Virus record (IMG/VR): IMGVR_UViG_3300048009_000280
Span: 1 to 25,333 of that record
Strand: one strand, 5' to 3'
Length of the DNA stretch: 25,333 nt
Origin: a virus
Taxonomy: Duplodnaviria > Caudoviricetes
The position numbers and the translations under genes were made by a program. Each line of letters starts with the position of its first letter. The stretch's first letter is position 1. The notes beneath the pieces were generated by a model that worked only from the letters and a program-made list of their open reading frames with translations, was not told the origin of the DNA and did no database searches. This document shows positions 12,054-15,636 of the stretch, one piece after another.

Positions 12054-12701
12054 ATGTCAGAAGTTTTAACAATGAATGAAACACCTGCTGATCAGCCACA
12101 ATTTAATGCTGATGAGCAGAACTCTCTTGAAGTAGCAGAATCTATTTCAGGAGAACCACAACTACTTGCAGGTAAGTTTTCAGATCCACAAGCACTAGAA
12201 CAAGCTTACCTTGAACTACAAAGTAAACTAGGACAACCAAGAAATGAATCCGAAACCAGTGAAGAAGGGGAGCAAGAAGAAGCCCCTGAAGAAGTACTAG
12301 ACAATCAAGAAGAGCAAGAAGAATCTAGCAAAGAAGTTCTTTCTGAACAACAAGCTGAACAGTTGTTTGAAATGGTTGGTGGTCACCAAGCTTATAAAGC
12401 AATGGTTAATTGGGCTGGAGACTCTCTTTCTAAAGAAGAGGTTAAAATGTATGATTCTGTTATGGCAGATGGTAATCCCAGTGCAATCTTCTTTGCAGTA
12501 CAAGCATTGTATAGTAAATATACTGATTCTGTAGGTAAAGAAGGTCAACTGTTGACAGGTAAAGGTTCTAATCAAAAGAATGAATCATTCCGTAGTCAGG
12601 CTGAACTTGTACAAGCTATGTCAGATCCACGTTATGATAAAGATCCTGCCTATAGATCAGACATTATGCGTAAACTAGAAAACTCTGACATCTCATTCTA
12701 A
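12054..12701 (+). CDS. Capsid scaffolding protein (T7 gp9-like)
   Basis: Acidic protein with LLAGKF, VGG..Y..MVNWA and FRSQAELVQAMSDPRY..DPAYR. Confidence 0.93.
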   Translation: MSEVLTMNETPADQPQFNADEQNSLEVAESISGEPQLLAGKFSDPQALEQAYLELQSKLGQPRNESETSEEGEQEEAPEEVLDNQEEQEESSKEVLSEQQAEQLFEMVGGHQAYKAMVNWAGDSLSKEEVKMYDSVMADGNPSAIFFAVQALYSKYTDSVGKEGQLLTGKGSNQKNESFRSQAELVQAMSDPRYDKDPAYRSDIMRKLENSDISF

Positions 12702-12895
12702 TGACTGTTACCACCAACGAACACGGACAACAAAACCTATTTGCTAAAGAACCCACCATGTACACTGACAAAGATTACACTGTGACACATAACGAAAAAG
12801 CTGAAATGCTAAACGGTCGCCTGGCTATGCTAGGTGTGATGGCTGCGCTTGGAGCGTATGCACTAACTGGTCAAATTATCCCCGGTATTTGGTAA
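12701..12895 (+). CDS. hli: High-light inducible protein (auxiliary photosynthesis gene)
   Basis: AEMLNGRLAMLG chlorophyll-binding motif, one TM helix and TGQIIPGIW terminus. Confidence 0.96.
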   Translation: MTVTTNEHGQQNLFAKEPTMYTDKDYTVTHNEKAEMLNGRLAMLGVMAALGAYALTGQIIPGIW

Positions 12896-13183: not shown

Positions 13184-13332
13184 TGGCTAAAAAAGGTCTC
13201 TACGCTAACATCCACGCAAAGAAAGAGCGTATCGCAAAAGGCTCAGGTGAAAAGATGCGTAAGCCAGGAAGCAAAGGTGCTCCTACTGCTGCCAACTTTA
13301 AACGAGCTGCTAAAACTGCTAAGAAAAAATGA
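13183..13332 (+). CDS. 49-aa basic protein (MAKKGLYANIHAKKERIAKGSGEKMRKPGSKGAPTAANFKRAAKTAKKK)
   Basis: Hand-translated. TAATG and ATGA overlaps with both neighbours. Confidence 0.85.
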   Translation: MAKKGLYANIHAKKERIAKGSGEKMRKPGSKGAPTAANFKRAAKTAKKK

Positions 13333-13781
13333 TTGAATGCCCACAATGTACTGCACCTCAGCAGTACGTTCTAGAACAACTACAGGCTTCTGCTGGTGTG
13401 AAAGACCGTACAGCACTAGCAGTCATTCTGGGTAACATCCAACAAGAGTCTAATTTTAAACCTAACGTATGCGAGGGTGGTGCTATCGTTCCTTACGATC
13501 GCTGCCTTCGTGGTGGTTATGGTTTAATTCAATGGACATCTAAACATCGTTACATTGGTCTTGGTAACCATTGTACTAAACGTAACGAAGATCCTAGTGG
13601 TCTTCAATGTCAAACTGATTACATGATTAATGAGATGAGGTTTAGAAAAGATCTCTATGCTTTTCAAACTAATCATCAAACAGTACGTTATTATATGAAT
13701 GCTGCTTACTACTGGTTAGGCTGGGGTATTCATGGTAACCGTACAAAATACACTTATTCTTTTTTAAATAAATTACAATGA
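13329..13781 (+). CDS. Lysozyme-like muramidase (phage tail lysozyme family)
   Basis: ILGNIQQES (catalytic Glu) and GGYGLIQWT motifs. Confidence 0.8.
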   Translation: MIECPQCTAPQQYVLEQLQASAGVKDRTALAVILGNIQQESNFKPNVCEGGAIVPYDRCLRGGYGLIQWTSKHRYIGLGNHCTKRNEDPSGLQCQTDYMINEMRFRKDLYAFQTNHQTVRYYMNAAYYWLGWGIHGNRTKYTYSFLNKLQ

Positions 13782-14149
13782 AAATTCTTGCTATCCTCCC
13801 TGCAACCCTGATTGCTTCTACTCCTGTAATGGCTGGTCCTTACGTAAATATTGAAAGTGAGTCTAAGTCTACTGGTGTAGATTTTAATAAAACAGTGTTG
13901 CGTAATGATGTTGGTTATGAAGGAGAATTCAGTGAATCAACAAAATATTATATCCAAGGTGGACCTGCTTTTGTAATGCCTGACGGTAAAGCAACAACTA
14001 CTGAAGCCTCTGGTAAAGTAGGTATTAAGACACAACTTAGTGAGCGTCTTGGTGCTTATAGTGAATTTAAATTCTTGACTAGCGGTGGTATGGATCTAGG
14101 GGAGCCTATCGGAACAACTGTTAAAGCAGGAGTTAAGTACAAATTTTAA
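13778..14149 (+). CDS. Secreted outer-membrane beta-barrel-like protein
   Basis: Signal-peptide-like N-terminus (MKILAILPATLIASTPVMA/GPY), alternating beta strands, and terminal KAGVKYKF with C-terminal Phe (BAM signal pattern). Confidence 0.7.
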   Translation: MKILAILPATLIASTPVMAGPYVNIESESKSTGVDFNKTVLRNDVGYEGEFSESTKYYIQGGPAFVMPDGKATTTEASGKVGIKTQLSERLGAYSEFKFLTSGGMDLGEPIGTTVKAGVKYKF

Positions 14150-14191
14150 TAGCTAAAACGCATATAACTTCCCCCCTTGACCTTGCTACTT

Positions 14192-14207
14192 CTAAGGCAC
14201 CTGTGAG
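14192..14207 (+). promoter_or_regulatory. Candidate phage RNAP late promoter
   Basis: CTAAGGCACCTGTGA|G matches 10/15 of the Syn5 RNAP promoter as I recall it (ATTGGGCACCCGTAA). It is followed by G and lies upstream of the capsid gene. Confidence 0.4.
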
Positions 14208-14220
14208 CGGCTAGAAGCAC

Positions 14221-14275
14221 GTCCGTTCATCCTTCGGGACGCATGACACCATAAGCATGGAACGGGGCTTGTGGA
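14221..14275 (+). ncRNA. Downstream-peptide (glutamine-II) riboswitch-like RNA
   Basis: CCGTTC(14223-28)/GAACGG(14260-65) stem, TCC-TTCG-GGA hairpin (14230-39), and pseudoknot CCATAAGC(14249-56)/GCTTGTGG(14267-74). Directly upstream of a YRG-motif peptide. Confidence 0.8.
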
Positions 14276-14294
14276 GGCTTCTAGAGAGGTTACT

Positions 14295-14342
14295 ATGCAA
14301 GGCAAAACTTATTGCTATCGCGGTGTAAAATACACCAAGTGA
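14295..14342 (+). CDS. 15-aa YRG-motif peptide MQGKTYCYRGVKYTK (DUF4278-like 'downstream peptide')
   Basis: SD GAGAGGT at 14284-14290. YRGVxY motif typical of peptides downstream of this riboswitch class. Confidence 0.75.
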   Translation: MQGKTYCYRGVKYTK

Positions 14343-14499
14343 GATAGATCTAATGAGGGGTGCAATTCCCCTCTTCACTATTGGCATTGGCCCTTACGAG
14401 GACACCCTTTGCCGTCTAGACGGTGGGATAGACCACAAATTTTTTTTAAAAACATCAAACGTTTGGTGAAAGCTATATCTTTATTATTTATTATTTAAA

Positions 14500-15636
14500 A
14501 TGTCTTTTCAATCTTCTGTTAACCCCGCTCAGCTTACTCAGCTGGGTCAGTCTAACTTGGCGGGTGATACCCGCGCTCTCTATCTGAAACTGTTTAGTGG
14601 AGAAATGTTCAAAGGCTTCCAACGTAATACGATCGCTCGCGATCTTGTGATGAAGCGTACACTTAAGAACGGCAAATCTTTACAATTTATTTACACTGGG
14701 CGCACAAAAAGTGAGTTCCATACGCCTGGAAATAGCATTTTGGGTGATAGCAACAATGCACCTCCTGTGGCTGAGAAGACCATCACGGTTGATGACTTGC
14801 TGATCAGTTCAGCTTTTGTCTATGACCTTGATGAGACTCTTTCTCATTATGATCTGCGCTCTGAGATTAGCCGTAAGATCGGTTATGCTCTTGCAGAAAA
14901 GTATGATCGTTTGATCTTCCGTGCTATCACTCGTGGTGCACGTGCTGCATCTCCTATTACTGCTAGTGGCTATGTTGAGCCCGGTGGTACTCAGGTTCGT
15001 GTTGGTACTACTGCTAATGCTTCTGATGCTTATTCTTCTAGTGCTTTGGTAAATGCATTCTATGATGCTGCCTCTGCACTTGACGAAAAAGGAGTCAGTC
15101 AGGATGGGCGTGTGGGTGTTCTTAACCCCCGTCAGTACTATGCACTGATCCAAGCTGCTGGTTCTAATGGTCTTATTAATCGCGATGTACAAGGTACTGC
15201 ACTGCAAAGCGGTGACGGTATTGTAGAGATTGCTGGTATTAAGATCTACAAGTCCATGAATATTCCTTTCTTCTCTCAGTATGGTACTAAGTACGGTACT
15301 GGTTCCGCTACTAACCCTGGCGTTACCGATCCTGGTAACACTGGTTCGTTTGTATCCGAAGCTGTTGAAGATGCTGCCAACGATGTTGCCGGTATCAACA
15401 ATGAGTACGGTGAAGAAACCGAATTTGCTAATAGCTGTGGTTTGATCTTCCAGCGTGAAGCTGCTGGTTGTGTTGAAGCGATCGCTCCTCAGGTCCAAGT
15501 GACCAGTGGTGACGTTTCTGTTATCTATCAGGGTGATGTAATCCTTGGCCGTTTGGCTATGGGTGCTGATTACCTGAATCCAGCTGCTGCTGTTGAACTG
15601 TTTGCTGGCACTGCTACCAAGCCTGCCGGATTCTAA
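14500..15636 (+). CDS. Major capsid protein (T7 gp10-like)
   Basis: ALYLKLFSGE, RTLKNGKSLQF, EKTITVDDLL, GYALAEKYD motifs. Followed by a terminator. Confidence 0.98.
   Translation: MSFQSSVNPAQLTQLGQSNLAGDTRALYLKLFSGEMFKGFQRNTIARDLVMKRTLKNGKSLQFIYTGRTKSEFHTPGNSILGDSNNAPPVAEKTITVDDLLISSAFVYDLDETLSHYDLRSEISRKIGYALAEKYDRLIFRAITRGARAASPITASGYVEPGGTQVRVGTTANASDAYSSSALVNAFYDAASALDEKGVSQDGRVGVLNPRQYYALIQAAGSNGLINRDVQGTALQSGDGIVEIAGIKIYKSMNIPFFSQYGTKYGTGSATNPGVTDPGNTGSFVSEAVEDAANDVAGINNEYGEETEFANSCGLIFQREAAGCVEAIAPQVQVTSGDVSVIYQGDVILGRLAMGADYLNPAAAVELFAGTATKPAGF

Follow-up and report, generated by a model that had tools for sequence, protein, structure and literature searches.

A glutamine-II riboswitch with a YRG peptide frame, a tRNA mimic and a structured leader RNA upstream of the capsid gene of T7-like cyanophages

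The locus, its aptamer and its peptide

The window, by which we mean the whole stretch of 25,333 nucleotides that was analysed, is a fragment of a T7-like cyanopodovirus with a gene order running from the RNA polymerase to the tail genes. Its major capsid protein shares 83% identity with that of S-RIP2 and 72% with that of P-SSP7, and in a capsid tree the window groups with S-RIP2 and S-SBP1. Near-identical DNA was found in many seawater metagenomes. Since DNA contigs of two runs that are unflagged as a possible source were identical over the region (X8, 14080-14525; X13, 14094-14540), the riboswitch region is no assembly error. An hli gene (12701-12895) and a phrog_417 frame of unknown function (13778-14149) lie upstream of the psbA relic listed below; positions 13329-13781 correspond to phrog_512, likewise of unknown function, with weak matches to endolysin and tape-measure families. 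The features of the locus are as follows:

14157..14214, + strand: remnant of the 3′ end of a lost psbA gene, with its final codons, its stop and an additional C; 89.6% identity over 48 nt to psbA ends
14211..14218, + strand: 5′ arm of the enclosing helix, CTAGAAGC, pairing with 14277-14284; shorter in close relatives
14224..14274, + strand: glutamine-II riboswitch aptamer (RF01704, 42.8 bits), numbered by manual mapping onto PDB 6QN3 (description in PMC6698751)
14224-29, + strand: aptamer C1-A6, CGTTCA
14230-39, + strand: aptamer P1 hairpin UCC-UUCG-GGA, 3 bp with UUCG
14240-43, + strand: aptamer linking strand CGCA
14249-56/14267-74, + strand: aptamer P2, CCATAAGC/GCTTGTGG, 8 bp, one of them G-U
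14257-66, + strand: aptamer A33-G42
14277..14284, + strand: 3′ arm of the enclosing helix, GCTTCTAG, ending on the first G of GAGAGGT
14286..14290, + strand: Shine-Dalgarno core GAGGT of the peptide ORF, judged from sequence as the best anti-SD duplex
14295..14342, + strand: ORF of a basic 15-aa peptide with one YRGxxY repeat of DUF4278 type, translation MQGKTYCYRGVKYTK
14338..14380, + strand: tRNA mimic, overlapping the peptide stop; cut predicted between 14380 and 14381
14338-42/14375-79, + strand: acceptor-like stem of the mimic, AGTGA/TCACT
14355-73, + strand: T-arm of the mimic
14380, + strand: discriminator-like A of the mimic
14381..14437, + strand: conserved capsid-leader RNA, absent from Rfam 15
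14383-90/14406-13, + strand: leader helix with internal loop C/ACAC and hairpin UACG
14412-23, + strand: leader palindrome
14423-36, + strand: leader hairpin
14500..15636, + strand: T7-like major capsid protein gene (PHROG 267 and 27239)

An earlier note, made from the letters of this DNA, had assigned the RNA to the Downstream-peptide/glutamine-II family and had proposed a search with Rfam models. This search bore out the assignment: RF01704 (Downstream-peptide) matched at 14221-14273 with 42.8 bits (gathering cut-off 33, E 1.7e-7) as the sole Rfam match above cut-off in the 25-kb window, and its cut-off was exceeded in 20 of 20 related loci. The sequences named in the note all lie at the positions given there; the names of its helices had to be changed. 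According to the description of the crystal structure (PMC6698751), the UUCG hairpin is P1, CGUUC/GAACG form a pseudoknot helix of 5 bp, CCAUAAGC/GCUUGUGG is P2, and G41 pairs with C19. Thus, the "P1 stem" of the note is a real helix which corresponds to the 5-bp pseudoknot helix, its "pseudoknot" pairing is equally real and corresponds to P2, and the UUCG hairpin, present as it had been described, takes the name P1. A sixth pair of the note's stem, C14223-G14265, is not general, the base before C1 being C in 97 of 122 loci.

P1 and P2 are both able to form in the window. By the hand mapping to PMC6698751, all bases named for glutamine contact or for the pocket are kept. The pocket bases C1 (14224), G2 (14225), G18 (14241), C19, A33, G35 and A37-G42 (C39 at 14263, G40 at 14264) are all present, with C19:G41 at 14242:14265, A33:G42 at 14257:14266 and G35>U4:A37 at 14259/14227/14261. 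Judged from its sequence, the window RNA is a true member of the glutamine-II (Downstream-peptide, RF01704) aptamers. Since glutamine binding is deduced from the identity of the pocket bases with those of the crystallised RNA, whose Kd is near 190 µM, we infer it, and rate it very probable. The suggestion of the earlier note that the phage senses host glutamine is supported to the same extent by the intact ligand pocket. An exact-pattern scan of IMG/VR, in which the core bases match by construction, returned 119 loci; together with P-SSP7, S-RIP2 and the window they make up the set of 122 loci used here. We estimate that about 1,700 IMG/VR stretches hold the aptamer core.

In the window, the sequence GAGAGGT (14284-90) precedes the peptide AUG, which lies 29 nt behind GGAACGG. 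Seven of the 122 loci are cut short, and the remaining 115 were scored for an ORF. In all 115 it starts 21-31 nt behind the aptamer and encodes the motif YRG, the script having favoured the motif-bearing start where two were possible; a Y three residues past the G occurs in 91 of 91 distinct peptides. The phage peptides are basic (median net charge +4), and nearly all copies comprise one repeat in 13-42 aa. Hence the YRG peptide proposed in the earlier note is real and conserved.

Its kinship to DUF4278 was confirmed by a detour. The DUF4278 model (PF14105) has 57 positions and the window peptide 15, and the 23-codon in-frame stretch holding the peptide gave no DUF4278 match at all (Pfam cut-off 25.3 bits). 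Among 47 phage relatives of at least 20 aa, 30 revealed a weak match to DUF4278, one being above and 46 below the cut-off. A profile built from 46 phage peptides retrieved 214 proteins at E ≤0.001, and 12 of 12 multi-repeat proteins picked among the 150 listed exceeded the DUF4278 cut-off. As the phage-peptide profile retrieves DUF4278 multi-repeat proteins, the window peptide is, by its sequence, one repeat of the YRG/DUF4278 family. In the ESM Atlas the best matches scored below 0.9, and one cluster was 33% DUF4278, which we take as a lead only. During infection by S-SBP1, a host DUF4278 gene was among those raised at the first time point, according to a table row of PMC7885011.

The tRNA mimic, the capsid leader and the distribution of the unit

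The peptide ORF is followed by a T-arm and an acceptor-like stem which stand at the spacing of a tRNA 3′ end, as in tRNA-like processing signals. ARAGORN found no tRNA gene in the window and did not call the mimic, nor did the Rfam searches return a tRNA match. Among 123 distinct sequences, a T-loop-capped stem lay directly upstream of the leader in 122. Fifty-two of these are T-arms, 50 of which stand 14-15 nt from the leader; the other 70 are stems carrying a conserved 15-nt loop, and 67 of them keep a distance of 16-17 nt. For the stem type, 112 of 118 loci have the capsid gene behind it. The distance between T-loop and leader is that of real tRNAs at the same site, and in NATL1A-7 and locus L129 a real tRNA-Gly ends at the mimic's place. 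Acceptor-like strands paired better with their own partner (-4.79 kcal/mol) than across loci (-3.11 kcal/mol; 0 of 5000 permutations, related sequences unthinned). The T-loop hairpin was found in 21 of 22 cultured phages, with or without a riboswitch, and in none of 141 control windows; S-CBP3 has a variant T-loop. RNase Z cuts behind the discriminator base. By this rule the cut is predicted after A14380, where host tRNA-processing enzymes would probably free the capsid mRNA. In two loci (L365, L384), T-loop-capped stems stand before sequences that are neither leader nor capsid gene. S-TIP28 and Syn5 (L255 and L259) share a further conserved stretch rich in hairpins; it precedes the T-arm and lies some 130-250 nt ahead of the capsid start.

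The mimic is followed by the capsid leader. An Rfam search of 14100-14560 at E values up to 10 did not disclose a known cyanophage RNA (wcaG, manA, PhotoRC-II) at the leader, and nothing above cut-off was obtained for it in 20 related loci. Folds like those of the HDV-like, twister and hairpin ribozymes were rejected, as there was no Rfam match and the topology differs. The leader core resides in about 1,600 IMG/VR stretches. In 76 of 76 loci with at least 400 nt of downstream sequence the capsid gene begins about 66-140 nt behind it, and the riboswitch is present in 27 of 37 leader loci with 1,400 nt upstream. Of the 22 cultured phages, 15 had a match to a leader model at E <1e-6. Covariation was analysed with 66 sequences recruited by way of the riboswitch: among 13 pairs, nine show changes on both sides, and pairing holds in 93.7% of the cells, which is above slid controls and above shuffled controls that keep relatedness. 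Eight exact leader matches were found in cellular genome records, and since seven of them adjoin a capsid gene, these are likely phage contigs. A record titled Prochlorococcus (G001:C8; L266, L274) includes a 43-kb contig with a capsid gene, riboswitch, 20-aa YRG ORF and leader, which probably stems from an infecting phage; the same record holds four other aptamer matches beside this contig.

The leader palindrome remains self-complementary in most variants of differing length (CATG, ATAT and two-base-shorter centres; L016, L032 and L035 were examined), and self-complementarity is lost in L075, L115, L036 and L099. Counts taken from loci recruited by the exact palindrome pattern are biased and give no evidence of conservation. 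Because the palindrome overlaps the first leader helix by two bases, two folds or a dimer are possible.

The unit of aptamer and peptide, unmarked in the GenBank stretches examined, occupies a constant position, with the scaffold/psbA region on one side and the capsid gene on the other. An open frame ends at most 200 nt upstream of the aptamer in 107 of 110 loci, and the median distance from its stop to the aptamer is 10 nt (≤20 nt in 80 of the 107). A capsid gene follows in 60 of 63 IMG/VR loci with at least 1,400 nt downstream, at distances of 232-1245 nt and often with genes between: it lies within 300 nt in 28 loci, at 301-600 nt in 22 and beyond in 10. In one IMG/VR cyanophage contig, a group I intron match (83.2 bits; L004, 2300-2513) was noticed behind the capsid gene start.

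We also inspected 22 cultured T7-like cyanophages, picked by hand from 57 records after dropping duplicates and most near-copies. Thirteen possess an aptamer above cut-off, two a degenerate one with the ORF kept, and seven none. S-SBP1 (L243, 860-960) retains the peptide and only the 3′ half of the aptamer, lacking the 5′ CGUUCA strand and P1, and S-CBP3 (L253) has a sub-threshold aptamer next to its YRG ORF. As both keep the ORF beside degenerate aptamers, the peptide can persist without an intact switch. Over the capsid tree, from which S-RIP1 was omitted in this test since the end of the record cuts through its gene, the unit is scattered (8 changes versus a shuffled mean of 7.2) and clusters no more than shuffled labels. 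Its appearance is that of an accessory cassette in the variable region ahead of the capsid gene rather than of a core regulator of the capsid. The proposal of the earlier note that the riboswitch directly tunes capsid output is not supported: the distance to the capsid gene is variable and often bridged by genes, seven of the 22 cultured phages lack the unit, and the capsid leader RNA is present with or without the riboswitch.

Control of the peptide and release of the capsid mRNA

Attempts were made to find promoters for the unit. Within 13700-14600 two sigma70-like sites were detected (2.2 expected), none of them near 14207, and none of 115 stretches upstream of the aptamer contained a sigma70-like pair. 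The psbA relic was identified by comparison with the intact psbA ends of L091 and L201, and no other psbA match occurs in the window. The -35-like TTGACC (14177-82) and the CTTCTA motif (14189-94) lie in its codons. A 12-mer at 14196, which we take to resemble the Syn5 promoter, was dropped since it lies within the relic; elsewhere in the window it recurs only with 2-3 mismatches. The 8-mers common to the stretches upstream of the aptamer match the psbA 3′ end and were discarded as promoter candidates. A start site near 14207, as postulated in the earlier note, thus finds no support. Read-through from upstream genes is the simplest reading of the spacing to the upstream stop and of the absent sigma70-like pairs, and we regard it as likely; a promoter of the phage RNA polymerase may lie inside the upstream genes. 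The RNA runs hold only contigs of relatives (85-99% identity) whose uncovered parts carry no meaning, so that start, end, strand and level of a transcript are unreadable from them. Contigs of this kind span the aptamer, peptide, leader and capsid gene, a contig not being equivalent to a single transcript or its ends. The 2007 transcription study of P-SSP7 reportedly mapped 5′ ends.

We consider it probable that the phage glutamine-II riboswitch is a translational ON switch for the peptide alone, and that the capsid mRNA is released by processing that is independent of the peptide. A long late transcript would read through from the upstream genes, and glutamine binding to the aptamer would raise translation of the 15-aa YRG peptide only. 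Host tRNA-processing nucleases would cut the tRNA mimic behind the peptide, whereupon the capsid mRNA would start with its own structured leader at the 5′ end. That glutamine would switch the peptide on, and not off, is fairly likely by analogy with a reporter in the host MED4, where a GFP fusion of the Yfr6 copy rises after ammonium (PMC6212724, section 17). Under plentiful nitrogen, the YRG peptide would bind, or compete for, a host partner of YRG-repeat proteins. Our tentative assignment of its target is this partner and not the glutamine synthetase site blocked by IF7/IF17.

Peptide translation and capsid expression may also be coupled. The ORF would then function as a leader peptide whose translating ribosome unfolds the acceptor-like stem and alters cleavage of the mimic, and thereby the amount or stability of capsid mRNA would change. 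Among 37 loci with the T-arm directly behind the YRG ORF, 36 have the 5′ strand of the acceptor-like stem embedded in the final codons or the stop of that ORF, so peptide translation could gate the cut. The 28 of 60 loci with the capsid gene at most 300 nt away are also compatible with coupling, as is X15, an RNA-library contig of a relative which spans 14241-14792, again not to be read as a single transcript. Yet the capsid gene is more than 300 nt away, often behind other genes, in the other 32 loci, and in phages without the riboswitch (P60, S-CBP42) the mimic follows the stop of any upstream gene. Moreover, the self-contained stems that make up 70 of the 123 upstream elements need no acceptor strand from an ORF, and the unvarying YRGxxY, which the multi-repeat host proteins also have, suggests that the product has a binding partner. 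We therefore judge coupled control to be unlikely. Its boldest form, an all-RNA relay of riboswitch, YRG leader peptide, mimic and cut that gates capsid synthesis of T7-like cyanophages on host nitrogen, is quite improbable; here, the ribosome at the peptide stop codon would open the tRNA mimic, this opening would set whether RNase P/Z frees the leader-headed capsid mRNA, and the self-complementary palindrome of the leader would possibly form dimers.

A further possibility is that the peptide directly inactivates glutamine synthetase, as a minimal IF17 made at high glutamine. Such a role has been proposed for the host copies (PMC6212724, section 21), and the phage peptide would be glutamine-controlled by its aptamer and is basic and DUF4278-like. 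However, DUF4278 corresponds to the N-terminal part of IF17 and not to the part that binds glutamine synthetase (PMC6212724, section 21; PMC6316151). The N-terminal part is dispensable for IF17 function, yet stabilises the protein (PMC6316151), and marine copies lack the C-terminal part required for binding (PMC6212724, section 21). The window peptide likewise consists of one N-terminal-type repeat without the C-terminal IF7-like segment. As it lacks the part of IF17 that binds the enzyme, direct inhibition is doubtful, and so is the modulation of glutamine synthetase put forward in the earlier note. Blocking nitrogen assimilation would presumably also be of little gain for a phage building nitrogen-rich virions. 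A complex prediction with two copies of Prochlorococcus glutamine synthetase (L276) and a 35-aa relative of the peptide scored 0.00, which speaks for neither side. Altogether, we hold an inactivator of this kind for decidedly unlikely. According to PMC6212724 (section 17), the hosts of YRG/DUF4278 peptides are difficult to manipulate, which has kept the function of these peptides open.

The earlier note had envisaged that transcripts started near 14207 and read-through transcripts fold differently, CTTCTA competing for the 5′ arm of an enclosing helix whose 3′ arm touches the Shine-Dalgarno sequence, and that this sets the output. The enclosing helix is predicted to form: it is above chance in the window (shuffle p 0.0022) and has a pair probability of 0.94-0.99 with or without CTTCTA. 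It covers only the first G of GAGAGGT, the core GAGGT remaining free. The pairing of CTTCTA with the 5′ arm has a probability of 0.001-0.028, and this stretch of the psbA relic is therefore no competitor. Moreover, the helix is shorter in six close relatives (8 bp in the window, 6 bp in L069, 3-5 bp in five others), and contigs from three RNA runs, belonging to two studies, have an A at position 14284, by which the end pair is lost. More in favour of the model, flanks pair slightly better with their own partner than across lineages (-4.45 vs -3.38 kcal/mol; 12 of 10000 permutations, 33 representatives), the pairing being strong, with the Shine-Dalgarno sequence covered, in four of the 33. Transcript length also alters the predicted fold: longer transcripts are predicted to mask the Shine-Dalgarno sequence and AUG by pairing with 14160-71, near the beginning of the psbA relic (opening energy 8.9 vs 1.5 kcal/mol; as high in 21 of 477 shuffles). 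As a general device this pairing failed (p ~0.1 over 40 loci), being strongest in five members of the window lineage. Together with the chance-level promoter scan, these data leave the model very improbable.

For the translational ON switch that we prefer, the enclosing helix and the pairing of 14160-71 with the Shine-Dalgarno/AUG region are predicted candidates, in the window lineage, for freeing the start site. When the aptamer core was blocked in folding, with the pseudoknot left out, the start site became easier to open in 40, harder in 29 and unchanged in 42 of 111 loci; in the window, opening was unchanged under the same setting (6.4 vs 6.5 kcal/mol). Folding z-scores of the whole region were weak (+0.02 to -1.5). 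That the unit is a host cassette carried passively in a variable island, without current function, agrees with its patchy distribution and the two degenerate copies and is still highly unlikely, given that roughly 1,700 viral stretches contain the core, that the ORF is intact in 115 of 115 loci, that P2 has at least 6 bp in 107 of 111 loci despite differing sequences, and that the phage form has one repeat against three in the host copy examined.

Relation to known systems and significance

Processing signals that resemble tRNAs are known from tRNA punctuation and from mimics of the mascRNA type. The cyanophage mimic shares with them an acceptor-like stem and T-arm of about 12 bp in all and a fixed distance to the next RNA. 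It differs by the missing anticodon arm and CCA and by its second form, a single stem capped by a T-loop-like 7-mer; its cleavage is predicted.

With the glutamine-II riboswitch (RF01704; PDB 6QN3) the window has in common the P1-pseudoknot-P2 layout, the ligand-contacting bases and the short ORF 21-31 nt behind. Unlike it, the phage copy is embedded in a run of genes, with a stop codon about 10 nt ahead of it and the tRNA mimic and capsid gene after it; neither promoter nor terminator was found. The host copy in L271 encodes three repeats in 57-58 aa and has a terminator-like hairpin, whereas the phage form has one repeat. DUF4278 proteins, i.e. Yfr6/PMM1846 of Prochlorococcus and the N-terminal part of IF17 (gifB), share with the phage peptides YRG-x-x-Y, the basic character and the glutamine riboswitch; the phage peptides mostly comprise one repeat and lack the IF7-like C-terminal part. 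Phage-borne glutamine aptamers have also been described in the T4-like marine phages Melnitz and S-CREM1 (PMC9004378, PMC9964418). Those are glutamine-I (glnA, RF01739) aptamers, thus of another class and in another phage family, and in the accessible parts of these sources they are tied to ssrA or to an unstated target, with no link to a YRG peptide or capsid gene described.

The Downstream-peptide motif was reported with 634 members and ORFs of 17-100 aa (PMC2864571), and the supplementary alignment published there in 2010 already includes the P-SSP7 copy (NC_006882.1/19588-19642). As the class and one phage copy were known, the riboswitch alone is no surprise. The core motifs of the leader did not occur as plain text in the 2010 supplements, where alignment gaps can hide motifs. 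Five candidate RNAs upstream of a major capsid gene (PHA00201), one of them with 43 nt and 74 mostly marine sequences, have been presented (PMC10690425); DNAVirus_231 and DNAVirus_3706 are two of the five. In the mostly open-access literature that was searched, we found no report of the unit before the capsid gene of T7-like cyanophages, nor of the mimic together with the leader, the candidates of PMC10690425 being compared by their description only. Nothing on the locus was found in the accessible text of PMC12379486, PMC12695635, bioRxiv 2025.10.05.680603, PMC9692554, PMC5737381 (main text) and PMC2518516.

The data suggest that riboswitch and peptide are more widespread in phages than the literature searched implies. 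The same literature did not mention how commonly the unit precedes the capsid gene in T7-like cyanophages; less is known of the tRNA mimic and the capsid leader than of the rest of the locus. S-TIP37 carries the whole unit, and phage mutants have been used with it (PMC12695635). With this phage, the function of the peptide, viral nitrogen sensing and the maturation of the capsid mRNA are therefore directly testable.
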